Numbered from the stretch's first letter, positions 2,303 through 60,255 are shown. The stretch: 64,000 nt of DNA from Escherichia coli (GCF_030013595.1 NZ_CP122768.1), one strand, 5' to 3'. A program made the numbers and translations. The notes: generated from the sequence alone by a model not told the origin.

Positions 2303-2312
2303 CTTTATATCC

Positions 2313-5862: not shown

Positions 5863-5903
5863 CCTCTTGATTCAATTGAAGTCGAAAATTTTAAGTCAAA
5901 AAT

Positions 5904-5929
5904 CGTATAGCTTAACGTGTAGCTAAAAA
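5904..5929. repeat. Sub-terminal repeat cgtatagctTaacgtgtagctaaaaa (left copy), probable integrase-binding/att-associated site
   Basis: Near-identical copy at 16432-16457 (1 mismatch). Confidence 0.55.
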
Positions 5930-28611: not shown

Positions 28612-28713
28612 ATGAAAGAGAATAAAGTACAACAAATCAGTCATAAACTGATTAATATCGTTGTTTTTGTCGCAATTGTAGAATACGCCTATTTATTTCT
28701 CCATTTCTATTAA
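28612..28713 (+). CDS. ykgR: Small hydrophobic protein (33 aa), YkgR-like
   Basis: ATG with RBS; position upstream of ykgM; name recalled from memory. Confidence 0.45.
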   Translation: MKENKVQQISHKLINIVVFVAIVEYAYLFLHFY

Positions 28714-29042
28714 TAACGGCAATAAACTGTTCACTTCAGTGATATTAAAAAATATGCATCCTCTCCCTTTTTTGTAAGTAATTATTATATCCGTGGGAGA
28801 GGAATACACGCTGTCCGGCAATCAATCAAACTGCGATAAATCATCGGCCAGTAAAATGGAGATAGCCTCCATTCTCGAAAAATTCATACTCTCAGCGAAA
28901 CCATCACTCATCAAGGCGTTTATGGGAGCGTCGCCAATGGCTGCTAACAATGCCAGACTTCCCCGTTGCCGAAATTCCACATACCACAAATGGTCACAGG
29001 GATTGGGTGTTGAAATGATCCGGATGAGCATGTATCTTTATG

Positions 29043-29335: not shown

Positions 29336-29475
29336 TGAAAGTCCTTAACTCTCTGCGTACCGCAAAAGAACGCCATCCAGACTGTCAGATTGTGAAGCGA
29401 AAAGGACGGCTATATGTGATTTGTAAATCTAATCCACGTTTTAAGGCCGTTCAGGGTCGTAAGAAAAAACGTTGA
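29335..29475 (+). CDS. ykgO: Ribosomal protein L36 paralog (46 aa), start overlaps ykgM stop
   Basis: [46 protein letters not shown]; not in ORF track because short. Confidence 0.8.
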
Positions 29476-29525
29476 TTCAAAATTCGACGAATTAACGATA
29501 TTTGTCTGATTAATAATCAGACCGG

Positions 29526-29565
29526 ATTAATGTTGGTGTATTTATTACACCAGCATTAATTTTCC
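29526..29565 (+). terminator. Rho-independent terminator after ykgMO
   Basis: Stem TTAATGTTGGTGTA / TACACCAGCATTAA followed by TTTTCC. Confidence 0.55.
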
Positions 29566-30489
29566 TGAGGATGTATCTTCCTGTTCATTTAAGGTCAACT
29601 GCCTGACGTTTCTCTCCGAATATTCCATTATATTAATGTTGACTTGTTGACCAGGTGCGCCCTGTATGCTGGCATCAACTCTCTTTTAGACTGAACACGC
29701 CACTCAGTTTCCTCCCTTTGCGACGCAGCCTGCATTTACACTCAAACGGTTAAGATGATAAATGTGGTAAATCTGTTGGTACTGACATAAAAACGTTTAC
29801 GCCACAGGAACGGCCTGATCCACCGGTAACCCCATCGCCGACGTTCGAGTGCCAGTTAGAGTAACGCGCACAGATGACTGAATGCAGTGCCCTGGCAAAG
29901 AGGCCATCGTTCCTGTGACAACTGGCAGTCTTCGTTTAACTTCACTTAATTTGGCTCTTAGGGGGCTTACCGGACAGATGACGTACTTACACCTGTTTAA
30001 TTTTTCATCACTTATTGGGATGAACACCCATAACCATTTTGTGCGGCATGTTAATCCATTAAAACACCTTACTGATTGGCAAATCATCTTTAATTATGAC
30101 TCATGATAGTTTTATATTCTATTTCTTATCATTTAAACTTGTTTTTTTACTAGTCCATTACACAACACATTAAGACTATTCCTAACACCTCAGGGCAAAG
30201 TTCCTGGCTAATATAAAATGCAAGTAAGAATTGAACGTTATATTGCCAATAACCTTATGAAACTGAATGTCTTTTTCTTCTTATCAAAAAAGCAATATTT
30301 TCATTTTTTGTAAATATTGACTTAACCATGGAATTCCTTTTCTGTTCACATATTGACACTCATCAGGAAAAAAACATAAATTTAAACCTAATCGAAATAA
30401 TTAAAACTTAATCTCGTTTAACCTATATTGATATGTGCTACGTATCTTATTTACTTCCGATTTACTAAAGAAACTGAATGTACCTGTAA

Positions 30490-38856: not shown

Positions 38857-39261
38857 ATCTACCCTGCTTGTACCATTATGTTATACACCTCTTCAGGAGT
38901 ATTCATAAAACAAGACAAATGTAAAGAACCGTATTGTTTTGTATAATGCAATGGTGCCTAATCGCCAATTAATATAAGCACCATCATTTCTCCCTATTTT
39001 TATATTAGAAGTGACAACGATTTGCAGGGTAATGCAGAGCTGACAATCACAGGTTTCCTTATCGGTTTTTGCATCGCACAACTAAAGCAATAAACTAGCT
39101 CCCGTCATCGGCGAATATGAATTAATTAGCCGGGCTCATAGCTGCATTCGCGTTTTAAGAATAATCCTCCTGCTCTCACCGACTATGCTTAACGTTTAAA
39201 AAAGCATCAGCACTCTCGCAACGCACTCTTATTTTCCCCTTTAGAATACCGGAGGCCTGGT

Positions 39262-39951
39262 ATGAGCAACCAAGGCGAATACCCCGAAGATAATCGGGTT
39301 GGGAAGCACGAGCCGCACGATTTTAGTTTGACCCGTCGCGATCTGATTAAAGTCAGCGCCGCAACGGCGGCGACCGCCGTGGTTTATCCTCATTCTACGC
39401 TTGCAGCAAGCGTTCCGGCAGCTACACCCGCGCCAGAGATAATGCCCCTGACACTTAAGGTGAGCGGCAAAACCGAGCAGCTTGAGGTGGATACCCGAAC
39501 CACGCTACTGGACGCTTTGCGTGAAAATCTGCATCTGATCGGTACCAAGAAAGGTTGCGATCACGGGCAGTGCGGAGCCTGTACCGTGCTGGTCAATGGT
39601 CGCAGGCTTAATGCCTGCCTGACGCTTGCAGTCATGCATCAGGGGGCCGAGATCACCACCATTGAAGGCCTGGGTTCACCAGATAATCTTCACCCCATGC
39701 AGGCGGCCTTTATCAAGCATGATGGCTTCCAGTGCGGCTACTGCACCTCCGGGCAAATTTGCTCATCAGTAGCGGTGCTAAAAGAGATTCAGGACGGCAT
39801 TCCCAGTCACGTCACGGTCGATTTGGTTTCCGCTCCAGAAACAACTGCCGATGAGATCCGTGAACGTATGAGCGGCAACATCTGTCGCTGTGGTGCATAC
39901 GCTAACATCCTTGCCGCCATTGAAGATGCTGCGGGGGAGATAAAATCATGA
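39262..39951 (+). CDS. paoA: Aldehyde oxidoreductase 2Fe-2S subunit PaoA (Tat signal)
   Basis: Tat motif RRDLIKV; two 2Fe-2S Cys clusters ([11 protein letters not shown]; [10 protein letters not shown]). Confidence 0.85.
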
Positions 39952-40904
39952 AGGCGTTTACCTATGAACGAGTGAACACCCCGGCCGAGGCGGCACTTAG
40001 CGCTCAGCGCGTACCCGGCGCAAAATTTATCGCTGGCGGGACCAATCTGCTGGACCTGATGAAGCTGGAAATTGAAACGCCAACCCACCTTATCGATGTG
40101 AACGGGCTCGGGCTCGATAAGATTGAAGTGACCGACGCGGGTGGGCTGCGCATCGGCGCACTGGTACGGAACACCGACCTGGCAGCTCACGAGCGCGTGC
40201 GTCGTGATTATGCGGTACTCTCCCGCGCCCTGCTCGCTGGCGCGTCTGGTCAGTTACGCAATCAGGCAACCACCGCAGGTAATCTGCTCCAGCGCACGCG
40301 CTGCCCCTATTTTTACGACACCAATCAGCCCTGCAATAAGCGCCTGCCCGGAAGCGGCTGCGCGGCACTTGAAGGCTTTAGCCGTCAGCACGCGGTGGTA
40401 GGCGTAAGCGAAGCCTGCATTGCCACCCATCCGAGCGATATGGCGGTCGCAATGCGGTTGCTGGATGCGGTGGTGGAAACCATCACGCCGGAGGGAAAGA
40501 CTCGCAGTATCACACTGGCTGATTTTTATCACCCTCCGGGAAAAACGCCGCACATTGAAACCGCCCTGCTTCCCGGTGAGCTTATCGTTGCGGTGACGTT
40601 ACCTCCGCCGCTCGGCGGAAAACATATCTACCGCAAGGTGCGCGATCGCGCCTCCTACGCCTTTGCCCTTGTATCGGTCGCGGCGATTATTAAGCCTGAC
40701 GGCAGCGGGCGCGTCGCGCTGGGCGGAGTAGCACATAAGCCCTGGCGCATTGAGGCTGCGGATGCTCAGCTATCCCAGGGGGCGCAGGCCGTGTATGACG
40801 CGCTGTTCGCCAGCGCCCATCCCACCGCTGAAAATACCTTTAAACTCCTGTTGGCGAAGCGAACGCTTGCCTCCGTACTGGCTGAAGCGAGGGCACTGGC
40901 ATGA
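39948..40904 (+). CDS. paoB: Aldehyde oxidoreductase FAD-binding subunit PaoB
   Basis: FAD-binding CO-dehydrogenase-like medium subunit pattern; operon position. Confidence 0.85.
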
Positions 40905-43099
40905 AATTTGATAAACCCGCAGGGGAAAACCCGATCGATCAGCTGAAGGTTGTCGGTCGTCCCCATGACCGCATCGACGGACCGCTGAAAACTACCGGCA
41001 CGGCACGCTACGCCTACGAATGGTATGAAGAAGCTCCCAACGCCGCCTATGGTTATATCGTCGGTTCCGCCATTGCCAAAGGATGCCTCACCGCCCTCGA
41101 TACGGACGCCGCGCAAAAAGCGCCGGGCGTACTGGCTGTCATTACCGCCAGTAACGCCGGGGCACTCGGCAAAGGCGACAAAAACACCGCCAGGCTGTTA
41201 GGCGGCCCGACTATTGAGCACTATCATCAGGCCATTGCGCTGGTAGTGGCCGAGACCTTCGAACAGGCGCGAGCGGCGGCCTCGCTGGTGCAGGCGCACT
41301 ATCGCCGTAATAAAGGAGCTTACTCCCTGGCGGACGAGAAACAGGCCGTCAGTCAGCCGCCGGAAGACACGCCCGATAAAAATGTTGGTGACTTTGACGG
41401 GGCTTTCACCTCCGCTGCGGTGAAGATTGATGCTACCTACACGACCCCGGACCAGAGCCATATGGCGATGGAGCCGCATGCCTCGATGGCCGTCTGGGAT
41501 GGGAATAAGCTTACCCTCTGGACCTCAAATCAGATGATTGACTGGTGCCGCACCGATCTGGCAAAAACGCTGAAAGTGCCCGTGGAGAATGTGCGTATTA
41601 TCTCCCCGTATATCGGTGGAGGGTTTGGCGGCAAGCTGTTCCTGAGAAGCGATGCGCTGCTGGCGGCCCTCGCCGCCCGTGCGGTGAAACGTCCGGTTAA
41701 AGTGATGCTCCCCCGCCCCACTATTCCCAATAACACAACGCACCGCCCCGCCACCCTTCAGCACCTGCGTATCGGTGCCGACCAGAGCGGGAAAATCACT
41801 GCTATCTCACATGAAAGCTGGTCCGGAAACCTGCCCGGCGGCACGCCGGAAACGGCGGTACAGCAAAGCGAATTTCTTTACGCAGGGGCGAATCGTCATA
41901 CCGGCCTGCGGCTCGCCACGCTTGATTTGCCGGAAGGGAACGCCATGCGTGCGCCCGGCGAAGCCCCCGGTCTGATGGCGCTCGAAATCGCGATCGATGA
42001 ACTGGCGGAAAAAGCAGGCATCGATCCCGTCGAGTTTCGCATCCTGAATGACACTCAGGTTGACCCCGCCGACCCGACGCGCCGCTTCTCTCGCCGTCAG
42101 CTTATTGAGTGCTTGCGCACCGGAGCGGATAAATTTGGCTGGAAGCAGCGCAACGCCACACCCGGACAGGTACGCGACGGGGAGTGGCTAGTCGGCCACG
42201 GTGTTGCGGCGGGCTTTCGCAATAATCTGCTGGAAAAATCGGGTGCTCGGGTTCACCTAGAACAAAACGGCACCGTTACCGTGGAAACGGACATGACCGA
42301 TATTGGCACCGGCAGCTACACAATTCTGGCTCAGACGGCAGCGGAAATGCTTGGCGTACCGCTGGAGCAGGTTGCGGTTCACCTCGGCGATTCCAGTTTC
42401 CCGGTTTCTGCGGGTTCTGGTGGACAATGGGGCGCGAATACCTCCACCTCCGGCGTTTACGCCGCCTGTGTGAAACTTCGCGAAATGATTGCCTCGGCAG
42501 TCGGGTTTGATCCTGGGCAGTCGCAGTTTGCCGACGGCAAGATTACCAACGGTACCCGAAGCGCCACGCTACATGAGGCCACCGCAGGCGGCAGGCTGAC
42601 AGCGGAAGAGAGCATTGAATTCGGAACACTGAGCAAGGAGTACCAGCAATCGACCTTTGCCGGGCATTTTGTGGAGGTCGGCGTGCATAGCGCGACGGGA
42701 GAAGTTCGGGTCCGGCGTATGCTCGCTGTGTGTGCTGCAGGACGCATCCTGAATCCGAAAACCGCACGCAGCCAGGTCATTGGCGCAATGACTATGGGCA
42801 TGGGCGCGGCACTGATGGAGGAGCTGGCGGTGGATGACCGTTTGGGCTACTTCGTTAATCACGATATGGCGGGGTATGAGGTGCCGGTTCATGCGGATAT
42901 CCCAAAACAGGAGGTGATTTTCCTGGATGATACCGACCCCATATCCTCCCCGATGAAGGCCAAAGGTGTCGGTGAGCTGGGCCTGTGCGGCGTGAGCGCG
43001 GCTATCGCCAACGCGGTGTATAACGCCACCGGTATTCGGGTACGGGATTATCCCATCACTCTGGATAAGCTGCTCGATAAGCTGCCGGATGTGGTTTAA
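40901..43099 (+). CDS. paoC: Aldehyde oxidoreductase molybdopterin subunit PaoC (732 aa)
   Basis: Xanthine dehydrogenase-family large subunit; operon position. Confidence 0.85.
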
Positions 43100-43108
43100 G
43101 GAGGAACA

Positions 43109-44062
43109 ATGTCATACCCACTTTTTGACAAAGACGAGCACTGGCATAAGCCAGAGCAGGCGTTTCTCACCGATGACCACCGGACCATTCTGCGCTTCGC
43201 CGTAGAGGCGCTAATGTCCGGTAAAGGAGCGGTGCTGGTGACGCTGGTGGAAATACGCGGCGGCGCGGCGCGCCCGCTCGGGGCTCAGATGGTGGTGCGC
43301 GAAGATGGTCGTTACTGCGGTTTTGTCTCTGGCGGCTGCGTGGAGGCCGCTGCCGCTTTTGAAGCGCTGGAGATGATGGGCTCAGGCCGCGATCGCGAAA
43401 TTCGCTATGGCGAAGGTTCGCCGTGGTTTGACATCGTTCTGCCCTGCGGCGGTGGGATCACGCTGACGCTCCATAAACTACGCTCGGCACAGCCTCTGCT
43501 CGCCGTGCTGAACCGCCTGGAACAGAGAAAACCGGCGGGTCTGCGCTACGATCCGCAAGCACAATCGCTGGTGTGCCTGCCCACGCAAACCCGGACAGGC
43601 TGGAATCTCAATGGCTTTGAGGTGGGGTTCAGGCCATGCGTCAGGCTGATGATTTACGGACGTTCTCTTGAGGCGCAGGCAACCGCGAGTCTTGCAGCAG
43701 CCACAGGCTATGACAGCCATATCTTCGATCTTTTTCCGGCCTCAGCCAGCGCTCAGATCGATACCGATACGGCGGTCATTTTGCTGTGCCATGATCTCAA
43801 CCGGGAGCTGCCAGTGTTGCAGGCCGCGCGAGAAGCAAAACCCTTTTATCTCGGCGCATTGGGCAGCTATCGAACCCACACTTTACGTCTGCAAAAGCTC
43901 CACGAGCTGGGATGGTCCAGGGAGGAGACAGCGCAAATCCGGGCACCCGTCGGGATATTCCCCAAAGCCCGGGATGCGCATACTCTGGCACTCTCCGTGC
44001 TGGCAGAAGTCGCCGCTGTACGTCTCCGTCAGGAGGATTCATGCCTGCCCCCATCGTCCTGA
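43109..44062 (+). CDS. paoD: XdhC-like molybdenum cofactor insertion chaperone PaoD
   Basis: XdhC/CoxI family pattern; operon position. Confidence 0.8.
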   Translation: MSYPLFDKDEHWHKPEQAFLTDDHRTILRFAVEALMSGKGAVLVTLVEIRGGAARPLGAQMVVREDGRYCGFVSGGCVEAAAAFEALEMMGSGRDREIRYGEGSPWFDIVLPCGGGITLTLHKLRSAQPLLAVLNRLEQRKPAGLRYDPQAQSLVCLPTQTRTGWNLNGFEVGFRPCVRLMIYGRSLEAQATASLAAATGYDSHIFDLFPASASAQIDTDTAVILLCHDLNRELPVLQAAREAKPFYLGALGSYRTHTLRLQKLHELGWSREETAQIRAPVGIFPKARDAHTLALSVLAEVAAVRLRQEDSCLPPSS

Positions 44063-44148
44063 TCCTCGCGGCGGGGCGTGGGGAGCGCTTCCTCACCTCC
44101 GGGGGAAATACCCATAAATTAAGAGAAAAATCTGCAGTAGCCGTTTAA
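44041..44148 (+). pseudogene. Truncated MobA/MocA-like nucleotidyltransferase start (35 codons, MPAPIVLILAAGRGERF...), overlapping paoD stop
   Basis: GGAGGA RBS and classic LAAGxGxRF N-terminal motif, then premature stop. Confidence 0.4.
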
Positions 44149-44173
44149 GAAAATCACCTAAATCGTTTAAAAG

Positions 44174-44197
44174 AGCGCCCAACCCATAGTGGGCGCT
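44174..44197. terminator. Bidirectional terminator hairpin AGCGCCCA / TGGGCGCT
   Basis: 8-bp stem between convergent genes. Confidence 0.45.
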
Positions 44198-44240
44198 TAT
44201 CGCCTTGTGTAACTTATTCAGCAACGCGCGCCTCGCCGGA

Positions 44241-45434
44241 CTAAAGCGCACCGGCCTTCTGGCGTGCGGTAACAAAGGTCAGTACGCCAGCGCAAAGGAG
44301 CAGCACGCTACTCATAGCAAACGTGCTCTGCCAGCCAAGGCGGTCAAACACAATGCCTCCTGCCGTTGATCCAAGGGCGATGGCGAGCTGAATCACCGCG
44401 ACCATGAGCCCGCCTCCGGCTTCGGCGTTGTCAGGCAACGTACGCGCAATCCATGTCCACCATCCGGTTGGCGCGGCGGTGGCCAGCATGCCCCAGAGTC
44501 CTAACAGCAGCGAGACCGTCCAGACGTGATGCCCGGTAAGCATCAGACCGATGGCAATGACGGCCATCAGTCCGGGTATGGCCATCAGCGTGGGGTAGAA
44601 TTTTCTGTTGAGAAATGCCGAAACAACCAGCGTGCCAATAAAACCGGCCACGCCGATAATCAGCAAAATCGACGACAAGCCTAAGGAATTAACCCGTGTC
44701 ACCGACTCCAGAAACGGGCGCACATAGGTGAATAGCGCAAACTGCCCCATGAAAAACAGGCCACAAGCTATCATGCCGACCACAACCATGCGGCGGCTAA
44801 ATAAGCGGAATACCGCGCCACATGAAGTGTGGCTTTTATTCGCATCCATGCTTGGCAGGCTGATGCACTGCCAGATAAAGGCGACAACCGCGATGGGCAC
44901 CAGGCACAAGAAAGCGCCTCGCCATCCGACCGTAGCCCCCAGATAGCTTCCCAGCGGTGCGGCCACGACCGTCGCCAGCGCATTACCGGCGTTGAAAATT
45001 GCCAGCGCACGCGTGACCTGATGCTGCGGCACCAGACGAATCGCCGTTGCCGCTGACATCGACCAGAATCCGCCAATAGCCACACCAATCATCGCACGAC
45101 CGACCATATACATCAGATAACTGGAAGCCAGCGCAATAATAAGCCCCGATACGGCCATCAGAACCGTCATCCCCAGCAGCAGGAACTTACGATTCATCTT
45201 TCCAGCTAGCGTTGAAAGCGTCAGGCTGGTCAGAACCGCCAGCGCGCCGGAGATAGCAATCCCCTGCCCTGCCAGCCCCTCCGTCACGCCTAAATCGCGG
45301 GTAATCGGCGTGAGCAGGCTGACGGGCATAAATTCAGAAGCAATCAGCACAAACACGCACAGGGTCATGGCAAAAATACCGCCCCAGTATGCGCGCTGAT
45401 GATGAGGTGATAGTGTTTGGCTTAGTGTCGACAT
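44241..45434 (-). CDS. MFS transporter (397 aa)
   Basis: About 12 hydrophobic segments, MFS-like motifs. Confidence 0.8.
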   Translation of the reverse strand: MSTLSQTLSPHHQRAYWGGIFAMTLCVFVLIASEFMPVSLLTPITRDLGVTEGLAGQGIAISGALAVLTSLTLSTLAGKMNRKFLLLGMTVLMAVSGLIIALASSYLMYMVGRAMIGVAIGGFWSMSAATAIRLVPQHQVTRALAIFNAGNALATVVAAPLGSYLGATVGWRGAFLCLVPIAVVAFIWQCISLPSMDANKSHTSCGAVFRLFSRRMVVVGMIACGLFFMGQFALFTYVRPFLESVTRVNSLGLSSILLIIGVAGFIGTLVVSAFLNRKFYPTLMAIPGLMAVIAIGLMLTGHHVWTVSLLLGLWGMLATAAPTGWWTWIARTLPDNAEAGGGLMVAVIQLAIALGSTAGGIVFDRLGWQSTFAMSSVLLLCAGVLTFVTARQKAGAL

Positions 45435-45509
45435 AGTGAAATTTCACAAAGATCAGGATAAAAGCCACCAGCCTATGGCCGATGGCTTTGCATCAATTCA
45501 GGAGAGGTT

Positions 45510-46646
45510 TTATTTCAGTTTGGTCTGGAAAAATTGTTCGAACTTCGCGAAAGGTATTTTTCCGGCCACGTTATCGTACAGGTCCACGTGATTTGCCCCT
45601 GGTACCACCACCAACTCTTTGTCGTTACTGCCAACCGCCTTGTAAGCATCTTCAGCAAAATAACGTGAATGCGCTTTCTCACCGGTCACAATCAGCGTCG
45701 GAATGGTGATTTCACTGGCGTAGCTCAACAGCGGCATATTCATAAATGACAGCGGCATCGTTGCCGTCCACGCCCCGGTAGAGTTAACGGAACGTTCGTG
45801 GAAGCCGCGCGGCATGCGATAGTAGTCAAAGAACTCTTTCAGTACCGGATGAGGATTTGCCGGCAGCGTTTCTGGCAGAATGCGCTCGCCCGCACTGACC
45901 TTGCCGTTGCTGTCGACATTAATATCATGACCACCGTGAGCGAACGTTCCGCTCTTCGCATCCTTCCAGCGCTGTTCATTCAGATATTGCAGAACAGCAC
46001 GACGGTCGGCGGTAGAATAACGGTCTTTGCCATCCCCCACACCATGACCCATCGCCCGGCTCATGTCATACATCACGCTGGTAGCTACCGCTTTAACGCG
46101 GGTATCCATCGCTACGTCGTTCAGCGCCATGCCGCCCCAGCCACAAATACCGAGCAGCCCGATACGGTTGCGATCTACCTCTTTTTGCAGCCCTAAGAAA
46201 TCCACCGCCGCGCTGAAATCTTCAGTGTTGATATCCGGTGAGGCGACGTTTCGCGGATAGCCGCCGCTTTCCCCGGTGTAAGAAGGATCGAACGCCAAGG
46301 TAACAAACCCTCGTTCCGCCAGCGTCTGCGCATACAGGCCGCTGGATTGCTCTTTCACCGCGCCAAATGGCCCACTGACCGCAATCGCCGCCAGCTTGCG
46401 ATCGCCACGGTCTTTAGGCAGGTAAAGATCGCCCACTAAGGTGATGCCATATCGGTTCGGGAACGAGACTTTACGGTGATCGACTTTCTGGCTCTCGGCG
46501 AACGTTTTATCCCATTTATCTGTCATGGACACAGGGGCATTAGGATTGGTTGAATCAGCATAACTCATTGTCGTGACTCCACTTAATGATGCGAAAAGCA
46601 GCATGGTCGGCATCGCGGTTTTTAGCGTGCGGGTGAAGGCTTTCAT
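45510..46646 (-). CDS. Secreted alpha/beta hydrolase, dienelactone hydrolase-like with Cys nucleophile (ORF track start 46667)
   Basis: Signal peptide; GICGWGG nucleophile-elbow variant. Confidence 0.65.
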   Translation of the reverse strand: MKAFTRTLKTAMPTMLLFASLSGVTTMSYADSTNPNAPVSMTDKWDKTFAESQKVDHRKVSFPNRYGITLVGDLYLPKDRGDRKLAAIAVSGPFGAVKEQSSGLYAQTLAERGFVTLAFDPSYTGESGGYPRNVASPDINTEDFSAAVDFLGLQKEVDRNRIGLLGICGWGGMALNDVAMDTRVKAVATSVMYDMSRAMGHGVGDGKDRYSTADRRAVLQYLNEQRWKDAKSGTFAHGGHDINVDSNGKVSAGERILPETLPANPHPVLKEFFDYYRMPRGFHERSVNSTGAWTATMPLSFMNMPLLSYASEITIPTLIVTGEKAHSRYFAEDAYKAVGSNDKELVVVPGANHVDLYDNVAGKIPFAKFEQFFQTKLK

Positions 46647-46832
46647 AAAAATCCCCATAAAAAACAACAGAGAGATACAGGTTTCCGACGGACAACGCTG
46701 CGGTGCTTTGCTTTGATGGGGTCATTATAGTGAGCAGAATTAGTGCTGATTAGGGGGCGATTAATGCTAAGATTAATACCATATTGTTATAAATTAATGT
46801 GGAGATTGCCGGCATGAAGGGGGGATGTTTCA

Positions 46833-47717
46833 ATGGCGAAAAGGGAGAACTACAACGAGCTGTACCTGTTTATGCAGGTGGTGCGAGAAGGCAGCTTTAC
46901 CGCAGCGGCTCAGCGGCTGGGTCTTGCTCAGTCAGGAGTCAGCCGTTCTGTTCGCGAGCTTGAAGAAAGGCTGGGCGTCCAGCTGCTAGTGCGCACCACG
47001 CGTAAACTGTCGCTGACACAAGCAGGCGAGCAGCTCTACCAGAAGACGGCATCTGGATTTGAAATGTTAGATCTTGGGCTTGCCACGCTGGCGCACTATC
47101 GAGAGACGCCCTCCGGCACGGTGCGTATCAATGCCAGCCAGCACGCGATTGATAAATGCCTGCTGCCAAAGCTGGCGGTATTTAAACAGAGATATCCTGA
47201 TATCCGGCTTGAACTGATAAATGAGAGCCGGTTCGTCGATATCATCGAGGAAAGATTCGATGCAGGTGTCCGCCTGGGGCCTGAAGTCGGCCAGGGTATG
47301 GTCGCGGTACGCATCACGCCCGATATGGAGATGGCAATTGTGGGGACTCCGGAACATTTTCGTCGCTATGGTTTTCCGCAAACCCCGGCGGATTTAAAGG
47401 CGCATCCCTGTATCGCCTATCAGTTTGCCGACGGCAGCGTATACCAGTGGGAACTCAATCAGGATGATAAAAAAATCACTCATCGCCCTGAAGGGCAATG
47501 GGCCCTATCCGACAGCTATATGGAAGCAGAAGCCGCCCGGCTGGGCCTCGGATTGGCCTATGTTCCTGTTGAACTGGTCGCGGATGATTTAGAACACGGT
47601 AAGCTTATCAGGGTGTTGCAGCGTTACAGCCTGCGAATGGAGGGATTGTTTCTCTATTACCCTCATCGCAACGTCTCCCCCGCCCTGCGGATGGTCATTG
47701 ATACATTGAAAATCTGA
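46833..47717 (+). CDS. LysR-family transcriptional regulator (294 aa)
   Basis: N-terminal HTH LYLFMQVVREGSFTAAAQRLGLAQSGVSRSVRELEERL. Confidence 0.8.
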   Translation: MAKRENYNELYLFMQVVREGSFTAAAQRLGLAQSGVSRSVRELEERLGVQLLVRTTRKLSLTQAGEQLYQKTASGFEMLDLGLATLAHYRETPSGTVRINASQHAIDKCLLPKLAVFKQRYPDIRLELINESRFVDIIEERFDAGVRLGPEVGQGMVAVRITPDMEMAIVGTPEHFRRYGFPQTPADLKAHPCIAYQFADGSVYQWELNQDDKKITHRPEGQWALSDSYMEAEAARLGLGLAYVPVELVADDLEHGKLIRVLQRYSLRMEGLFLYYPHRNVSPALRMVIDTLKI

Positions 47718-47930: not shown

Positions 47931-48215
47931 ATGATGAAAACTGATCATTATCGTTGTTTTTGTTGCAATAGTAGAATACGCGTATTTATTCCTCCATCTC
48001 TATTAATAACGGCAATAAACTGTTCACTTCACTGATATTTAAAATATGTATCCTTTTCAAGCTGTTCAGCGGCGTAAGAAAAAGTATTAATTATGAATTC
48101 GATGATTTAACCATATCTGTCTGATTGGTAATCATCCGTGATTAATGCTGGTCTATTGATTACGCCAGCATTAACCGCTTAGGGATGTATTCTTCCTGTT
48201 CATATAGCCCTCGAA
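47931..48215. repeat. Degenerate paralogous copy of the ykgR - ykgO-downstream flank (copy 1 at 28612-29600) with ykgM/ykgO coding part deleted
   Basis: Aligned by eye: shared ...attaataacggcaataaactgttcacttca... and terminator-like ccagcattaa segments. Confidence 0.55.
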
Positions 48216-48301
48216 AAAGAGAGAAAATAAAACTGTGTCCAATATTAATTTACCACTCCAGACCGAAGCATCGGTGGGATTAGCAGAATGATCTGCGTCT
48301 G

Positions 48302-48517
48302 ATGTTGAGGCTGGCTCTTGCCGGCGCAGGCATAACAATTGCCACTCAGGAAACTTTCAGGCCATATATTGAAAGCGGTAAGCTTGTATCGCTGCTTGAT
48401 GACTTTCTTCCACAATTTCCGGGCTTCTATCTGTATTTCCCACAGCGTCGCAATATTGCACCAAAGCTCCGCGCCCTGATTGACCACGTCAAGGAATGGC
48501 GGCAGCAATTGGCTTAA
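48302..48517 (+). pseudogene. yagP: LysR-family C-terminal fragment (yagP-like remnant)
   Basis: 71-aa ORF matching LysR substrate-binding C-terminus only. Confidence 0.5.
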
Positions 48518-51200: not shown

Positions 51201-51623
51201 TTACCGCTTCTGGTGCAGAAGCTGCAGATGACGAAGAGTACGGACATCCTCCCGGGCCTGTTCGATACAGGGCAACAGTGCTACCGAATCCGTTTTATCC
51301 TCATCGTTGTCAAAGATAATTCCCGATTCGCAGTCGATATTGTCCTGCAGCCACGCAATGAGGATATCCAGCGCTGTTTCAGTGGTTAATGGCATCACGC
51401 TCTGTATCACTGTATTGTCTTCCGGCAACTGATGAGGGCTGGCAGAAGTCGCCGGTGTTTCGGTAGCGTCACGTTCATTCACCACGCGGAGTGAATAACC
51501 GTTTTCAGCGACTTTGTTAATCAGTTCAGCGAGCTCAATACCATCGACGTCAACGACAATGCGCCCCATGTTCAGCGCCTGCGCATTAATGCTGTCGGCT
51601 TCCAGCGTCAGGGCCAGTTTCAT
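51201..51623 (-). CDS. YeeW-like protein (140 aa)
   Basis: Position immediately downstream of CbtA-like toxin; acidic. Confidence 0.5.
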   Translation of the reverse strand: MKLALTLEADSINAQALNMGRIVVDVDGIELAELINKVAENGYSLRVVNERDATETPATSASPHQLPEDNTVIQSVMPLTTETALDILIAWLQDNIDCESGIIFDNDEDKTDSVALLPCIEQAREDVRTLRHLQLLHQKR

Positions 51624-52000
51624 TGTTTCGCCCCCGGATGTTTACCCAGGGTAATGTTATTTACCGTTCTGTAGTTGTCGCGTGTCATCAGGCCGGTTGC
51701 CCGGCGTGCCCGGAGGATATCAATACTGTTTATTAACTGAGAACGGGTACAGGCGCTGAATCCCGGCTGGTCGGTACGTACCAGTGCGTATTTTTCAACG
51801 AGAAAGTTCACCGCATCGCACAGTGAAATGCCTGCCTCAATATGCTGCTCAATCACACGTTCATCAGCGAACGGTGTGTCATTCAGCGTAAGGCCGTAGT
51901 GCTGATCCAGCAGTCGGGTGAGCAGTGTCTGCCAGATTTCAACCGGAGACGGGCGTGAACTGGCCGCCTGCCCGGGTAATACAGGTAATGTTTTCATACT
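51620..52000 (-). CDS. CbtA/YkfI/YeeV-family type IV toxin (about 126 aa; ORF track extends to 52138)
   Basis: MKTLPVLPGQAASSRPSPVEIWQTLLTRLLDQHYGLTLNDTPF matches CbtA family N-terminus. Confidence 0.75.
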   Translation of the reverse strand, partial: SMKTLPVLPGQAASSRPSPVEIWQTLLTRLLDQHYGLTLNDTPFADERVIEQHIEAGISLCDAVNFLVEKYALVRTDQPGFSACTRSQLINSIDILRARRATGLMTRDNYRTVNNITLGKHPGAKQ

Positions 52001-52086
52001 GAAGATTTTCCTGAAATGCAGAGATGAAAAATGGAAAAGTGGCGTGGTGAAAGCACCAGGCCGGAGCAGAAGGTTATTCTGGAGAG

Positions 52087-52455
52087 TTACTTTTTCGTTT
52101 CGGGCGTCGGATAAACAGCCATATAAACGTAGCCACAACTGCCGAGGGTGTCGGCTTCGCAGGTCAGCCCTTTTGCATACAGCGTGACGGTATGCTGATG
52201 GCGGGGATTCAGTTCACCGCTGGTGAGCATGAGCTCCAGTTGTTTCATCAGCAGCGGAAAGGCCTGGTCTAGGTGGTACGAATCCGCGTCGCTGAACCGC
52301 CCTCTGATACCGGCGCGGTCGGCAAGGTAATGCAACCGGTTGCCTTCCTGTACCAGACGGGCACCAAAACAGGGCGTCACGGTGCAGGGCAGTCCCCACC
52401 AGGTGCGGTCGTTATTGTCGTCGGGAAGCGTTGTCCCGGGGAGTGTGTCTGACAC
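52087..52455 (-). CDS. CbeA/YafW/YeeU-family type IV antitoxin (122 aa)
   Basis: Family pattern; immediately upstream of toxin. Confidence 0.75.
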   Translation of the reverse strand: MSDTLPGTTLPDDNNDRTWWGLPCTVTPCFGARLVQEGNRLHYLADRAGIRGRFSDADSYHLDQAFPLLMKQLELMLTSGELNPRHQHTVTLYAKGLTCEADTLGSCGYVYMAVYPTPETKK

Positions 52456-52534
52456 GATAAAATCCTCACAGAAAATTGGTTAAGAATGGTCCGGTGGTGG
52501 CGATAATTCTGCTCTTCTGAATGCCCTTCCAGAC

Positions 52535-52756
52535 TCAGTTCAGGGTGACGCTCATCAGCCGGACATACGGACCAAAACTGTCCTTCCGGCGTTCTGCAAA
52601 CACAGCCAGCACACCGGGAATATCCTGTACTTCACGGCCGGTATATGTATCCGTGCTACCGTGCCAGCGGTATTTACCGGTACAGAACGGAAAAAGACGG
52701 GATGCAGGATGCTGACGGTGAATACGCATGGCTTCACCACGGGTGATGATTTTCAT
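52535..52756 (-). CDS. DUF987 protein (YkfH/YeeT-like, 73 aa)
   Basis: Position and size in CP4 module. Confidence 0.6.
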   Translation of the reverse strand: MKIITRGEAMRIHRQHPASRLFPFCTGKYRWHGSTDTYTGREVQDIPGVLAVFAERRKDSFGPYVRLMSVTLN

Positions 52757-52842
52757 GAGAATAGTCCTCCTGAATGTGAAAGTAAGAAACAGCTGAGAAA
52801 GAGAAACTGAAGTGATATGAAGGTGATTGTGACGGTGACGGG

Positions 52843-53334
52843 TTAAAGCAGACCGTGTTCCGCAAAGGAGAAAACCTGGCTGCCACCGATTATCAGATGG
52901 TCCGGTACCCGGATATCCACCAGGGCCAGTGCCTGTACCAGACGCTCAGTGATAAGGCGGTCTGCCTTGCTGGGGGTGACTTCACCGGACGGGTGATTGT
53001 GCGCCAGCACCACGGCAGCGGCATTGTGGTACAGGGCGCGTTTAATCACCTCCCGGGGATGGACTTCTGTGCGGTTGATGGTGCCAGTGAAGAGGGTTTC
53101 ACCGGCAATCAGCTGATTCTGGTTGTTCAGATACAGCACCCGGAACTCTTCCCGCTCCAGTCCCGCCATGTTCAGTATCAGCCATTCCCGTGCCGCATGC
53201 GTGGAGGTGAAGGCCACGCCGGGTTCATGAAGATGGCGGTCCAGGGTTTTCAGGGCCCGTTGAATGAGGCTGCGCTCGCCGGGCGTCATCTCTCCGGGCA
53301 GAAAGGAAAGCTGTTGCATTGTGCTTCTCTCCAT
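52843..53334 (-). CDS. RadC-like JAB-domain protein (YkfG/YeeS-like)
   Basis: JAMM motif HNHPSGEVTPSKAD. Confidence 0.8.
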   Translation of the reverse strand: MERSTMQQLSFLPGEMTPGERSLIQRALKTLDRHLHEPGVAFTSTHAAREWLILNMAGLEREEFRVLYLNNQNQLIAGETLFTGTINRTEVHPREVIKRALYHNAAAVVLAHNHPSGEVTPSKADRLITERLVQALALVDIRVPDHLIIGGSQVFSFAEHGLL

Positions 53335-53820
53335 TCAGTCGATGATGCGCATAATGGCGCTGCATTCCGGATGCTGCAGGGCGTAATCCCGCAGCCGGTA
53401 ATAATGGACCGTCATGGCATAACACTCCGTACGACAGGCATGATGACTGTACGTCATCAGACAGGCAGCAATGCCGGCGGCTTCCGGGCTCATTTCAGCG
53501 CGGTTGCCGTTCATGACATTGAACAGTACCCATATTTCGTCATCATCGTCATCCGGTTCGGGTGCCATAAATGCCCCGCCGTTGTTCAGAGTGTACAGAT
53601 TCCAGATACCACCGCAGTAGTCTTCGCTCAGACGGTCCATCCAGCCGAAAACACGGGGCTCCAGGGTCACCCACTGTGGAATGAGACCAAAGTGCTGCGG
53701 CCAGAAGCTGATGCGCTGTTCATCAGGGACTATGGTGGCAACCAGCTGAGGCTGGTCATTCCCTGATGCAGCGGTTACGGAAACAGAAGGAGTGGTGGAA
53801 TTATGCGAGACGGTTGTCAT
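53335..53820 (-). CDS. Anti-restriction protein (YafX/YfjX-like, 161 aa)
   Basis: Position in CP4 module; acidic stretch PEPDDDDDE. Confidence 0.6.
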   Translation of the reverse strand: MTTVSHNSTTPSVSVTAASGNDQPQLVATIVPDEQRISFWPQHFGLIPQWVTLEPRVFGWMDRLSEDYCGGIWNLYTLNNGGAFMAPEPDDDDDEIWVLFNVMNGNRAEMSPEAAGIAACLMTYSHHACRTECYAMTVHYYRLRDYALQHPECSAIMRIID

Positions 53821-53911
53821 GAGATTATTCCTTATAAAAAGTAAATGAATGGAAGAAACCCCGGGGGAAGGGACAAACGTGAGTCAGAACTGCGCTTTCA
53901 GGGAAAAGGCA

Positions 53912-54730
53912 TCAGCACATGCTCTCCAGCAGCGTTTCAGCCATTACCCACAATGCGCGATTGAGCTTAATGTCGGTGTCGATGCTGTGAATGGCACGGG
54001 TATGGATACGTTTCCCTCTGGCACTGCGACCGGAAATTCCGCCTTTCAGCATATTCTCCTGAATGGTCTGATAAGCACTCCACAGGTCCTTACCGTAATC
54101 CTCCCGGCGTCGTGGTGTCAGAATGTCGGCGGTGGTGACGGGCTGATGTTCGTCACCATAACGGTAAGTCAGTGCCGCCTGTGCCAGCGCCTGGCGTGCC
54201 GGTGGCGGCAGAATCAGCGACTGCATGGCATCACGCTTTTCCTCAATCCGCTCAAACACGCCCACCACCTCGTAAGCCCCTTCAATAACTTTCTCCACCA
54301 CATTTCCCCGGTGTGGAACACGCAATTCTCCCAGAGACTGACCGCAGACCAGTCCATTGGTACAAATGGCACGAAAATATCCGGGTAACATCTGGTAGCT
54401 GGATGAACCGTCATGGGAGTTGAGCAGAATAATTTCAGGGACATGCTGACCGGTTATCTGCCCGGCCCGCCGCAGACGCAGCATGTGTTTTGTGTATTCC
54501 CGGCGGCTCTGGTCGCGCACGCGGGTCTGGCAGGCAAAGAACGGCTGAAAGCCTTCCTGCTGCAGATTTTCCAGGACGGTGATAGTGGGAATGTACGCAT
54601 AGTGTTCACTTCGGGAGGTATGTCGGTTTTCCCCAAAAATACTCGGTACATGGCGCATCAGTTCTTCGTGTGTCAGCGGACGGTCACGGCGTATCTGGTT
54701 TACATGACCAAAACGACTCGCTAATCGCAT
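53912..54730 (-). CDS. YafZ/YfjQ-family protein (DUF932-like, 272 aa)
   Basis: Family pattern from memory; CP4 module position. Confidence 0.6.
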   Translation of the reverse strand: MRLASRFGHVNQIRRDRPLTHEELMRHVPSIFGENRHTSRSEHYAYIPTITVLENLQQEGFQPFFACQTRVRDQSRREYTKHMLRLRRAGQITGQHVPEIILLNSHDGSSSYQMLPGYFRAICTNGLVCGQSLGELRVPHRGNVVEKVIEGAYEVVGVFERIEEKRDAMQSLILPPPARQALAQAALTYRYGDEHQPVTTADILTPRRREDYGKDLWSAYQTIQENMLKGGISGRSARGKRIHTRAIHSIDTDIKLNRALWVMAETLLESMC

Positions 54731-54849
54731 TATTTGCTCCTTATGAATGAGTTAGCGGTATAAATGAATAAATATCCTCCGGCATAGCCGGAGGTTTTTC
54801 AAATGCGCCTGTAAGGCTCTGTTACCAGCCGCGCCCTAACAGGCGCATA

Positions 54850-55525
54850 CGATCTGACATTTGCATTCAACTTCGTTACTTACGGCCCGTAAACGGGCTG
54901 CCCGGATATGGAATCGATAACTGCTCCCCCATTTTATCCTCTTCAAGCTGGTGCTTTATGTAGTCCTGTATCTTCGCCGTGTTCTTACCCACCGTATCGA
55001 CATAGTACCCTCGGCACCAGAACTCCCTGTTTCTGTATTTGAATTTCAAATCCCCAAACTGCTCGTAAAGCATCAGACTGCTTTTCCCTTTCAGATATCC
55101 CATAAAGCCGGATACGCTCATTTTGGGTGGGATTTCCACAAGCATATGGATATGATCTGCGCAGCACTCTGCTTCCAGAATCCGTACGCTTTTCCACTCA
55201 CACAGCTTTCTCAAAATACTGCCTATCGCCCTACGCTTCTCTCCGTAAAACGCCAGTCTTCGGTATTTCGGCGCAAAAACTATGTGATATTTACAGTTCC
55301 AGCGGGTGTGCGCTAAGCTCTTTTCGTCCCCCATTGGGACCCCCTTTTGATTTCTTGTTTGACACTTGCAGTTGCCAGACCGCAAGGTGTTTTAACAAAT
55401 CAAAAGGGGTTTTAATAACTGGCTCAAAGCTGAAAGCTTTCCGGAACCCCCAGCCTAGCTGGGGGTTTTCTGTGCACAAAAAGCCGCGTCTCCCGGAGAA
55501 GACGCGGCCTGATGGGTGAAATGAA
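54850..55525. mobile_element. IS200/IS605-family insertion sequence (approximate ends)
   Basis: Y1/HUH transposase ORF flanked by structured ends; hairpins at 55340-55520. Confidence 0.65.
54876..55334 (-). CDS. tnpA: IS200-type transposase TnpA (about 152 aa)
   Basis: HUH motif HIHMLVEIPP and catalytic Tyr region YYVDTVG. Confidence 0.8.
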   Translation of the reverse strand: MGDEKSLAHTRWNCKYHIVFAPKYRRLAFYGEKRRAIGSILRKLCEWKSVRILEAECCADHIHMLVEIPPKMSVSGFMGYLKGKSSLMLYEQFGDLKFKYRNREFWCRGYYVDTVGKNTAKIQDYIKHQLEEDKMGEQLSIPYPGSPFTGRK

Positions 55526-55530
55526 GACGT

Positions 55531-55800
55531 TTATTGCCTGAGAATTCCCTCACTGGCGAGATACGGATTTAGCTGTTTTCCGGCATCAGGTTCAAAATTC
55601 CAGTACCGCCAGCGCAACTGACCTTCAGCATTACGGATAACCAGCCGGAAATGCGTTCCCTGGTCATCTTCAATAAGCACATTGCGGTAAGCTGTTGTGA
55701 CGGCAACCGCCTGTTCGCGTGAGAAAGGGCCTTCGGGTAATAAACGTGATGTACAACCCGGCATATCTGTTGCTCCCTGAAAGTAAAAGGCCCCGGTCAT
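55531..55800 (-). CDS. Hypothetical small protein (89 aa) downstream of Ag43
   Basis: ORF only. Confidence 0.4.
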
Positions 55801-55834
55801 GATGACCGGGGCCTGAAGGGGAGTGACCTGATTA

Positions 55835-58681
55835 TCAGAAAGTCACATTCAGCGTGGCCTGACCGTTATAACCTTCAGCGCTGCTGCCGCTGACGCTGTG
55901 GGCATAACCGGCCTGAACGCCCAGGGTGATATTTTCCCGGACACGGGCTTCCAGTCCGGCCTGCAGGTCCAGTGACGTGCCATTCTGGGATGGTGAGAAC
56001 GTCATGTTACTGCCGGCTGCGGCTGTACCCATGCTCATGTCACCCCGGGAGCTGAAGGTGCGGATAACAGAAGGCTGTACCCACCAGTTCACCGGCAGTT
56101 CACGCACACTGTGTTTTGCACTGTCGCGCAGGGTGTCACGGGATGAGGTGCCTTCACCAAAGGTCATATCGTTGTGGCTGCCCAGACGGAAACCGGCACG
56201 CACATGTTGTGCACTGCCATGCCCGAACTTCACATAACCGGCGTTATCCTGGCCGTCATCCAGGGAAAGTCCCTGCCAGGTATACTGCAGTTGTGGCTCC
56301 AGCATCAGGTTGTCAGTGATACTGAAGGGCAGACCGGTTTCCAGTGAGCCCAGCCAGCCCCAGCCCCGGGCGCGGAAGTCGTTATTGTCCGATGACGCTT
56401 TCATGCTGTGGCGGGTTCCCTGTGCCACAATGTCAGCCCACAGGCCGGAGGACGTGTGTGTCAGATTCAGGTATCCGCCCAGGCTGCCGGCATCATCCCG
56501 GACCGTGCCGGCACGGGAGCCGTCATCATCCTTAACATCAACGGAAGAATGGCCTGCAGCGCCATATACCCCCGTGGTCACAGACATACCGGCAACCTCT
56601 GTTCTCAGCAGGTCACCCTCCAGACGGACGAAGCCATAGCTGCCGCTGCTTTCCGGCGTGGCCCCACGGGCAATACCGCCGTTGTTATCGTGACCGAGAT
56701 GACCGCCCTGAATGCTGAGACGGACGCTGTTATTTTCACCGTTTACACCGGTCTGATGGCTGCGGGAGCCTGCCAGAATCCGGTCATAGTCCATTGCCTG
56801 TGTCAGCATGGAGGCATACAGGGGGACTTCAGCACGATAAGCATTTTCACTGCGCAGGTACCAGTCTTCATCGCTGTCACGGTTCAGGGTGTAGTTAAAG
56901 ACACCGGCCTGAAGCGGGCGACTCAGGGCAAACGCACCTTCTTCTGTGGTGGCACCATTCTGTGCATCCACAACCCGGATACCCTGTCCGGAGGTTGCCA
57001 CCCCGAGGTTACTGTTTCCGACATTTGTGAACGCAAGCCAGGTTTTGCCGGTTGCCTGACCACCATTAATCACCAGCTGGTCAGGGGCATTGCTGCCATC
57101 AAGGCGAACACGCATATTGATGGTGCCACCCTGACCGGTGAGGTTACTGGTGGTCAGTTTATGGAACGTTACCGGGGCGTCGCCTTTTGCAACAGCACGG
57201 CTCAGGACGGCATCCTGTGTCGTCTGATTATCAAAGCGAATCTCCCCTGCGTTAACAATATCGCCGGTACTGACCACATCACCATTCAGTACCATGCTGG
57301 CGCCTTTACTGAGCTGTGTTCTGCCACTCAGACTTCCCCCGGCAGCCAGCATCAGTGTCCCACGATGTCCGACAGTGGTGTTGCTGGCCTGTCCCCCGGC
57401 ATTAACCGTAAAGCTACCGCCATTTTCCAGCAGCAGGCCGCTGGCCTGACCGGATATACCATCAATACTGAACTTACCGCTGGCATTGGTCCCCTCAACA
57501 GTGGCACCACTGTCTGCAATCAGGGCACCACCGGATGTCATGGTGACACCTGTTGCCTTACCACCGGCAGACACTGCCAGGGTACCGCCGTCATCCACCC
57601 GTGTTTTCTGCGCTGAATGGCCCTCCAGTACATCCAGGCGACCGCCGGACTCCAGAACAAGGCCGTCAGCCTTACCGTTTTCCACCGTGAAATTGCCCAG
57701 ACGGTTGCTGCCGGTGACGGTTGCCGCCGTACTGGTGACCAGTGCGCCCCCCTGCTTCAGGGTGACATTCGTGGCTGTACCACCGGCGTTCACCTGCAGC
57801 TTGCCTTTCTGGTTAACGGTGGTGAAATCCGCCAGACCACCTTCCTTGATAATCTGCCAGCCGTCACTGTTTACAACAGTGCCAGACGCCGTACCGCCGT
57901 TGTGCACATACTGGTACCCCCCATTCAGCGTGGTATCCAGTGCGTGACCATGTACAGTCTGGTCGCCGCCGGCATAAACCACAGTGGTATTTACCGTTCC
58001 TTCAGCAGCCACAATCTGACGACCATTTTTATTGATGGTGGTGCGTACGGCATCTCCGTAGACGGTCTGCCCGGTATCACCATTTTCTGCATCCGGTCCC
58101 CCTTCCGCGCCGGTATTCACAACCGTGTCGGTTGCCACTGCGCCGGATTTGACGGCCTGCCAGCCCTTCTCATTAATGACAGTACCCGTTGCAATCCCGC
58201 CTTCATGTACCCACTGCTCACCGCCGTTCAGAGTGGTGTTCACTGCCTGCCCCTGAAGGCTCTGTCCGCCTCCGGCACTGATAACCGTGTCTGAAACGCT
58301 TCCTCCGGCATTCACTCTCTGAAGACCACCACCGGTGACAGTAGTGTTGTTGGCGATACCGCCATTTTGTATCCATTGTCCGCCGGTATTGGCCTCGTTA
58401 TCCGGCCCATACTCCAGACCGGTACTGATGGTCATTCCGTTGGCCGTACCGAAGACAATCTGGTTGTCATGATTTTCCAGTGTTCCGCCGCTCACGGTTT
58501 CTCCCGTCTGTACAACCGTGTCAGCAGCCAGTGCCGGGACTGATGTGACAGCAGCAAGAGACAGCGCAACCGCCACACCGGCGCGTTTTCCCCGTGAGCG
58601 GGCCAGTTCGGAGGTCACCACCAGGGTGCCCGTAATGTGATTCCATACCAGCCTGTAGCTGGTGTTCAGATGTCGTTTCAT
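55835..58681 (-). CDS. flu: Antigen 43 self-associating autotransporter adhesin (about 948 aa; ORF track start 58756)
   Basis: [35 protein letters not shown]... extended signal peptide; repetitive beta-helix passenger; C-terminal beta-barrel. Confidence 0.85.
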
Positions 58682-58898
58682 CAGCTTTTCCTTACAGAGG
58701 GTGAATAAAAAAGCCGGTACCCACAAATATGGGTACCGGCAGGTACAAAACAGCATGGTCAGATAAAGTGGTTTTTCCCGGACATAAATGCTTCTCCTCT
58801 CTCATCCGCCAGAGAAGTATCAGTCCGTTGTGTGCAATTCCGTTCTGCATGATGAAGAGATTCAGCTGCCTTTTCGCAGACCATTAACCACTATAAAC

Positions 58899-58934
58899 GA
58901 TCGATGGTAACGATCGATACATGTTTTATCGATC
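58899..58934. promoter_or_regulatory. Three GATC (Dam) sites at 58899, 58912, 58931 in Ag43 upstream region: OxyR/Dam phase-variation switch
   Basis: cGATCGATggtaacGATCGATacatgttttatcGATCGtttt, 220-250 bp upstream of flu start. Confidence 0.65.
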
Positions 58935-59052
58935 GTTTTATTCTATTAACAGCAAGGCAGTCACGCAAGAGAAAGAGGTGGGTATGAGGTGTTTGTGTCA
59001 TGTTTTCAGTTGGTTAACGCAATGTAATCAGGCATTTCCCCTGGCAGAGTGT

Positions 59053-59925: not shown

Positions 59926-59954
59926 ACATGTATTCCCGGTGAAAAAAGACAAAA

Positions 59955-59980
59955 CCCCGCGCACCGGAAAGGTGGCGGGG
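59955..59980. other. GC-rich hairpin CCCCGCGCACC-ggaaa-GGTGGCGGGG; on minus strand followed by T-run
   Basis: Perfect inverted repeat seen directly. Confidence 0.4.
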
Positions 59981-60255
59981 GATTCACGGAGATAATATCT
60001 GTCTGAAATTATTTAGGATGCAGGTATCTTCAGATAATCGCACCCCCAGAATTTTATTCTTAATAGTTGAATAGTGGTATTTGGTTTCCCTGAGAGAATA
60101 TAAAGATGAATCATGCTGTATTGAGTTTGATTCTATTTGTACTGAGACAGGTATCTTCATGATTATAATCAAAAGCCGGGTGGATTGGTCTGGCGCTAAT
60201 TATTTTCTCGAATAAACTCACTAATTATTGTAACCATCCCAAAGGAGATGATTTT

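Follow-up and report, generated by a model that had tools for sequence, protein, structure and literature searches.

A short reading frame at the end of the Escherichia coli paoABCD operon is very probably the relic of a fifth, MobA/MocA-like gene and the source of the N-terminus of yagP

PaoC carries the molybdopterin cytosine dinucleotide (MCD) cofactor, and PaoD is needed for its insertion (PMC2997495, PMC3909100), in line with the premise of the original prediction that the pao enzyme needs a cytidylylated cofactor. MCD is formed by MocA (YgfJ), which interacts with PaoD and passes the cofactor on to it, and paoD has been described as the last gene of the E. coli operon (PMC2997495, PMC3909100). 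In several bacteria, genes for XdhC-type chaperones are paired with mocA-like genes (PMC2997495). Our literature search found no description of a pao remnant or of a chimeric origin of yagP. Here we characterize a 35-codon open reading frame (the stub) that begins inside the end of paoD. With high confidence, we interpret it as a relic without function that preserves the first 27 codons of a fifth pao gene; the E. coli lineage lost the rest of this gene through a deletion of about 7 kb, and the same relic supplied the N-terminus of yagP. This reading draws on the homology, synteny, junctions, distribution and decay of the stub, all of which were directly observed in the genomes compared.

The window is the whole stretch of E. 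coli chromosome that was analysed (64,000 nucleotides of NZ_CP122768.1, GCF_030013595.1), and it has the gene order bet, hyx, ykgEFG, rcl, fdeC, ecp, ykgJ, yagU, paoABCD, an MFS/hydrolase/LysR block and a Mu-like prophage. The ORF list places paoA at 39262-39951, paoB at 39948-40904 and paoC at 40901-43099, all on the plus strand. The last intact gene of the operon, paoD (43109-44062, plus strand, TGA at 44060-44062), encodes an XdhC-family Moco insertion chaperone, as indicated by the ORF list, its Pfam domains XdhC_CoxI and XdhC_C, and the RefSeq annotation. Downstream, RefSeq annotates an MFS transporter (44241-45368, minus strand), an alpha/beta hydrolase (45510-46568, minus strand) and a LysR regulator, LysR1 (46833-47717, plus strand), and this block of 44241-47717 now adjoins the stub. 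Folding revealed a GC-rich hairpin at 44173-44198 (-16.6 kcal/mol and z = -3.3 on the plus strand), with a U-run after it on the minus strand. A simple terminator scan called no terminator at this site. The hairpin is probably the terminator of the convergent MFS gene, and as such would probably end pao transcripts too.

Further to the right, tblastn of the C-terminal part of YagP detected the 3' fragment of a second LysR gene, LysR2, at 48287-48517 on the plus strand (residues 35-110, 97% identical). At 47938-48295, between LysR1 and this fragment, sequence resembling the ykgR 3' region (91% identity) is combined with sequence resembling the ykgO/ykgL region (77%) in a small mosaic copy; the regions compared are 28645-28762 and 29439-29591. 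Positions 51300-64000 hold the tail and baseplate module of the Mu-like prophage with its invertible tail-fibre region (pinE), and an IS3-family element sits inside a YmfQ-family gene of this prophage part at about 54233-55461.

The stub occupies 44041-44148 on the plus strand, comprises 35 codons and a TAA, and translates as MPAPIVLILAAGRGERFLTSGGNTHKLREKSAVAV*. Its ATG at 44041 lies 22 nt inside paoD, the last 22 nt of which overlap the stub, and it is preceded at a distance of 4 nt by the Shine-Dalgarno sequence AGGAGG (44031-44036, plus strand), which falls in paoD codons (Q-E-D). This sequence would be that of the former fifth gene, since the same arrangement, CAGGAGGA..TTCATG, also precedes the intact fifth genes of two relatives, L003 and L037, described below. 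The features on which the original prediction was built, namely a well-placed ribosome-binding site with an ATG overlapping the paoD stop, a LAAGxGxRF signature (here LAAGRGERF, residues 9-17) and a frame that stops after 35 codons, were therefore all confirmed. The overlap of paoD with the fifth gene suggests translational coupling, and the stub peptide may well be translated, the start signals being intact in all variants seen. A Pfam search with the 35-aa peptide alone gave no match to NTP_transf_3 (PF12804) at E<=10, and none to HTH_1 or to a LysR substrate-binding domain. The motif alone thus proves nothing about family, and it is orthology, rather than a profile, that at the level of sequence establishes the PF12804 origin of the stub.

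As the intact orthologue for these comparisons we used the fifth gene of L003 (184 aa, start MPASIVLILAAGRGGRFLTSGGSTHKLAALLNGK). Searched by tblastn against the whole 64-kb window, it matched at a single site, 44041-44121, where its residues 1-27 align with 24 of 27 identical (E=1e-9); all other matches in the window had E>1, and none represented a 3' remnant of the fifth gene. At the DNA level, homology to L003 (90% identity) extends without interruption past the end of paoD and up to 44121, where it ends. It ends at the same nucleotide in L036 (88.7% identity) and in L037, whose positions 4819-5674 align with 43266-44121 at 93.9% identity. We therefore place the left-hand breakpoint of the ancestral deletion (about 7 kb) at 44121/44122, where homology to L003, L034/L037 and L036 all ends. 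With the L003 gene as protein query, 492 relatives were retrieved at E<=1e-10; the most similar intact proteins among them, P0032 and P0039, start MPAPIVLILAAGRGERFLTSGGSTHKL and are identical to the stub at 26 of 27 residues. In a family alignment of 27 sequences, G12, R16 and K26 are invariant and a further five residues (L9, A10, A11, F17 and L27) reach 90% conservation or more; the stub has every one of them. It thereby carries both the nucleotide-binding loop of PF12804, L-A-[AG]-G-x-[GS]-x-R-[FM], in the form LAAGRGERF, and the conserved Lys (K26).

These data bear directly on whether the frame is a chance ORF with a glycine-rich motif and no evolutionary link to nucleotidyltransferases. 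The region is rich in short ORFs and the peptide alone lacks an NTP_transf_3 match, as a chance frame would, but the 26/27 identity to the N-terminus of intact 184-aa proteins, the collinear nucleotide homology with its sharp end, the same position relative to paoD in 24 loci, and the isolated tblastn hit in the window make such a coincidence almost inconceivable, and by sequence comparison this explanation is already refuted. Collinear homology, a sharp junction at 44121/44122 and intact orthologues at the same position instead identify the stub as a gene remnant. The true remnant is confined to 44041-44121 (plus strand), codons 1-27 of a MobA/MocA-like (PF12804) nucleotidyltransferase gene, as supported by the nucleotide identity to L003 and L037, the peptide identity and the invariant residues. 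The ORF tail at 44122-44148 (plus strand), REKSAVAV and the TAA, has no counterpart in intact genes; codons 28-35 come from unrelated sequence that flanks the 3' end of the convergent MFS gene. The proposed MobA/MocA-like ancestry consequently holds for the first 27 codons and fails for the last eight. A complete PF12804 alpha/beta domain spans about 160-190 residues and includes central GMG-S and P-x-D-x-P segments, and of the 184 residues the stub keeps only 1-27. It derives from the family but cannot be a working member, as no enzyme can be made from 27 codons.

To define the distribution of the fifth gene, a PaoD scan with one genome per species yielded 26 pao loci, with sources including Pluralibacter, Leclercia, Enterobacter, Silvania, Siccibacter, Cedecea, Kosakonia, Citrobacter sedlakii, Pseudocitrobacter, Pseudescherichia, Erwinia and Asaia, among others. 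The condition under which the original prediction would have fallen, a coincidental motif match and no genome with a full-length gene at this position, did not hold. In 24 of the 26 loci, an ORF of 178-221 aa begins at or just inside the paoD stop, in a frame other than that of paoD, and aligns over its full length to the L003 gene. The two exceptions are L009 and L028. Two loci look like independent losses or damage of the gene: Erwinia sp. 198 (L009) has no trace of it and carries a divergent LysR gene after paoD, and in Asaia platycodi (L022), which is counted among the 24, it appears split between two frames by a frameshift or a sequencing error. In L028, the contig of about 4.4 kb contains only 51 PaoD codons. 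This contig (USLW01000226.1), labelled uncultured Clostridium sp., holds a 5' fragment of paoD that is 98% identical to that of E. coli, and is probably a binning or contamination artefact.

The fifth-gene ORFs are MobA-like NTP transferases of PF12804 (E 2e-24 to 3.5e-27). Among NCBIfam models, MocA_YgfJ (TIGR03310) is their best or second-best match, with scores of 66-95 bits for the intact orthologues, under the equivalog cutoff of 186.45 bits, and MobA models match them weakly (E 1e-3 to 1e-4). P0039 and E. coli MocA share 22% identity over 120 aa (E=0.001), and the nearest solved structure to the intact fifth gene is the M. tuberculosis MobA/MocA-related protein 2WE9 (E=3e-4). The family is a separate PaoD-linked clade and not MocA proper. 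Based on genomic context and linkage to paoABCD, the intact fifth gene most likely encodes a cytidylyltransferase that makes MCD for PaoD. The idea of a lost dedicated cofactor-maturation gene is accordingly upheld in that relatives have an intact PF12804 gene at this position, with the qualification that its cytidylyltransferase activity is read from context and that the protein is distant from MocA (22%).

The entire pao operon (39077-44121) shares 89-91% DNA identity with L003 956-5900 and L036 2094-7081, which are labelled Pluralibacter or metagenomic, and paoD is 94% identical to a Salmonella-labelled contig. Such identity is closer than expected from the divergence between these genera. 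Within E. coli, about 3,598 of 5,426 complete genomes carry the pao 3' end, which is undetectable in the other 1,828 (about one third). High cross-genus identity and patchy presence in E. coli together hint that the pao locus moves horizontally.

None of the 5,426 complete E. coli genomes contains a full or longer copy of the fifth gene; alignment to the L003 gene covered at most the first 81 nt of that gene. How the rest was lost is best seen in L037 (Logan SRR11245250_195; also GCA_011508625.1), a contig labelled Salmonella enterica that encodes P0039 and has the intact fifth gene at 5594-6148. The gene is followed by 6.7 kb that encode a hydrolase, a two-component system, a cupin, a CMD protein, a flavodoxin and an abhydrolase, and beyond these come an MFS gene (minus strand), an alpha/beta hydrolase gene (minus strand) and a LysR gene (plus strand), in the same order and orientation as beside the E. 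coli stub. L037 12881-16148 is collinear with 44253-47533 at 84.7% nucleotide identity, and the MFS, hydrolase and LysR proteins are 82%, 95% and 98% identical, respectively. Because L037 combines the intact gene, the 6.7 kb and the same block, a single deletion of about 7 kb suffices to produce the E. coli state. The comparison supports one such event as having taken codons 28-184 and the next 6.7 kb, and the loss by deletion that was originally proposed agrees with it. Over positions 1-5615 of the same contig, genes characteristic of an integrative element (TraI_2, a UvrD-like helicase, UmuD/UmuC fragments and an integrase-like ORF) stand in place of paoABC and the 5' part of paoD. What is kept is the 3' end of paoD and, intact, the fifth gene.

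Alternatively, the gene may have been truncated by insertion or replacement, with recombination or a mobile element bringing in the MFS/hydrolase/LysR block in place of the 3' portion of the gene. In most other relatives (L003, L036 and others) the genes downstream of the fifth gene are unrelated, the region is a rearrangement hot spot beside thrW and prophage insertion sites, and the first 131 nt beyond the junction (44122-44252) lack an alignment to L037, homology resuming only at 44253. For this reason the right-hand breakpoint can be placed only approximately; the sequence may have changed again after the first deletion, or the rearrangement may have been less simple than a single deletion. 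We nevertheless consider replacement unlikely, though it is the alternative to which we give the most weight, as the window sequence and its annotation contain no IS element, integrase or repeat at the junction, and L037 has the intact gene and the same three-gene block 6.7 kb apart, a configuration from which one deletion is sufficient.

The deletion scar itself exists in several forms within E. coli. The junction type of the window is found in 912 of the 5,426 genomes, and a second type, that of K-12 and BL21, in 2,685; in the latter, the sequence departs from that of the window at about 44117 and continues into a LysR fragment. In BL21 (L002 6445-6855), the ORF that starts at the same ATG has 136 codons and reads MPAPVVLILAAGRGKRFLTSGGNTHK and then CIGWRQSPEV..., and in K-12 MG1655 the same ORF is yagP (b0282; NC_000913.3 297381-297791; L033 3382-3792, minus strand). 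Thus, yagP starts at the ATG of the stub and overlaps paoD by 22 nt. It is annotated as a putative LysR family substrate binding domain-containing protein, which describes the LysR part only.

The full-length source gene of the LysR part, LysR2, is intact in O157:H7 (L031 10442-11341), where the order is paoD, stub, MFS, hydrolase, LysR1, ykgR fragment, a hypothetical gene, an SDR oxidoreductase and LysR2. About 400 genomes have LysR2 intact, a figure obtained by subtracting the 2,685 genomes that have the K-12 junction from the 3,093 that contain the whole fragment. The second junction can be read from three sequences: the stub side has ..ACCCATAAATTA.., that is ...AATACC(C)ATAAATTA, the LysR2 side in O157:H7 has ..AATCATAAGTGTATC.., that is ...GAATCATAAGTGTATCGG, and the BL21 junction has ..ACCCATAAGTGTATC.., that is ...AATACCCATAAGTGTATCGG. 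The second deletion removed 6,133 bp across a CATAA microhomology and happened to be in frame. By this alignment, yagP is an in-frame chimera, with codons 1-26 assigned to the lost MobA/MocA-like gene and codons 27-136 to the C-terminal effector-binding part of LysR. The stub is the counterpart of the 5' end of yagP in genomes without the second deletion.

Two other routes to these junctions were considered and rejected. The K-12-type and window-type breakpoints, 44117 and 44121, are 4 bp apart, as might result from independent truncations, but the long form of O157:H7 shows otherwise: the K-12 junction arose secondarily, by a CATAA-mediated deletion in DNA where the older junction was already in place, so the closeness of the two breakpoints does not require two independent truncations. 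Nor does the LysR part of yagP stem from a gene located after the fifth gene in relatives, as no such gene is present in L003-L027; its source is LysR2. The window has undergone a change of its own: compared with O157:H7 (L031 9063-11110), a further deletion of about 2 kb has taken the SDR gene and left LysR2 without its 5' two-thirds; the overlap at the junction (48287-48295) is about 9 bp.

The annotation of the stub reflects this history. RefSeq leaves it unannotated in the genome type of the window, and some GenBank records name the 35-aa ORF 'transcriptional regulator LysR-type'. This name is plausibly a transfer from yagP, whose LysR-derived residues 27-136 are absent here.

Among E. coli genomes, the stub shows signs of relaxed constraint. 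In O157:H7 the loss of one C, a 1-nt deletion, changes the frame to ..GGNTIN*, in K-12 the substitution R16C removes the invariant Arg, and many single-residue variants occur, as does a stop-loss variant of 109 aa (P0020). The tail is REKSAVAV* in one variant, IN* in O157:H7, a LysR fusion in K-12 and BL21, and different again in the 109-aa stop-loss form.

Could the stub nevertheless have been kept as a functional small ORF, whose coupled translation tunes or stabilises the 3' end of the pao mRNA or the termination of paoD, or whose peptide binds PaoD? The strong Shine-Dalgarno sequence and ATG are conserved in all E. coli variants examined, and the 35-aa ORF was found in more than 1,000 contigs. 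However, the Shine-Dalgarno sequence, the ATG and codons 1-7 are already held by paoD coding, so their conservation needs no separate explanation. The frameshift in O157:H7, the absence of the invariant Arg from K-12 and a tail that is wholly different between variants all speak against selection on the peptide, and there is no same-strand downstream gene to couple to. Partner recognition in MobA/MocA proteins is set by the C-terminal part and not by the N-terminal loop, which counts against binding of the stub to PaoD. An interaction of MocA with PaoD has been reported (PMC3909100), and an N-terminal fragment could in principle keep a contact. Taken together, we regard retention for a function as improbable, and the stub peptide as most likely without function. 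We give equally little credence to a related proposal, in which the intact gene represents an uncharacterised PaoD-coupled clade, 'PaoE', distinct from MocA, and in which the stub and yagP are still translated via paoD coupling with a role in paoD expression or PaoD binding. If this were true, the relic would be better described as a domesticated micro-ORF than as junk.

Under the favoured interpretation of a functionless relic, the events can be arranged as follows. The ancestral enterobacterial operon would have comprised paoABCD and a gene for an NTP transferase of about 184 aa, MobA-like, with its start codon inside the end of paoD, and the product of this fifth gene would have made molybdopterin cytosine dinucleotide for insertion into PaoC by PaoD. 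In the E. coli lineage, the deletion of about 7 kb brought codon 27 up against the 3' flank of the convergent MFS gene, after which the frame runs through 8 unrelated codons to a TAA. The loss was presumably tolerated because the unlinked mocA (ygfJ) would supply PaoD with the cytosine dinucleotide cofactor. From then on, paoD coding has preserved the ribosome-binding site, the ATG and the first 7 codons, while the other stub codons drifted. Finally, in K-12-type genomes the 6,133-bp CATAA deletion placed the stub in frame with the C-terminal 110 codons of a LysR gene, giving rise to yagP.

The stub is an ordinary gene relic, real, and with a small annotation consequence: K-12 yagP is listed as a LysR-domain protein though its first 26 codons come from a nucleotidyltransferase gene. 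The ancestral pao operon most likely had five genes including its own transferase, and the reliance of E. coli on the distant mocA for the PaoABC cofactor would be a derived state. The fifth gene is a putative second, chaperone-coupled MCD synthase, and expression of Pao-type enzymes from other enterobacteria should include it. The locus also offers a clean two-step example of deletion scars, including an in-frame chimera across 5 bp of microhomology. The finding alters no larger picture.

Within E. coli, yagP is the direct relative of the stub. The two share the ATG, the Shine-Dalgarno sequence and the first 26 codons, and they differ in that the K-12/BL21-type frame is fused to 110 LysR effector-binding codons whereas the window frame ends after 8 unrelated ones. 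At the level of protein family, MobA (GTP:molybdopterin guanylyltransferase) has the same fold and the same N-terminal nucleotide-binding loop, LAGG/LAAG-x-x-x-R-[MF], as the stub family, but the context of the fifth gene points to a xanthine-oxidase-family enzyme that uses MCD and not MGD. MocA (YgfJ, b2877) belongs to the same Pfam family, PF12804, and serves PaoABC via PaoD (PMC3909100, PMC2997495); it differs in being unlinked to pao and only 22% identical to the intact orthologue P0039. In XdhC-like and MocA-like pairs, such as pucA-pucB of B. subtilis and those of Arthrobacter nicotinovorans pAO1 and Oligotropha carboxidovorans, the chaperone gene is followed by, or co-transcribed with, that of the dinucleotide-forming transferase (PMC2997495). 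The intact pao loci of relatives have exactly this arrangement; the E. coli pair is disrupted, with no more than the first 27 codons of the transferase left.
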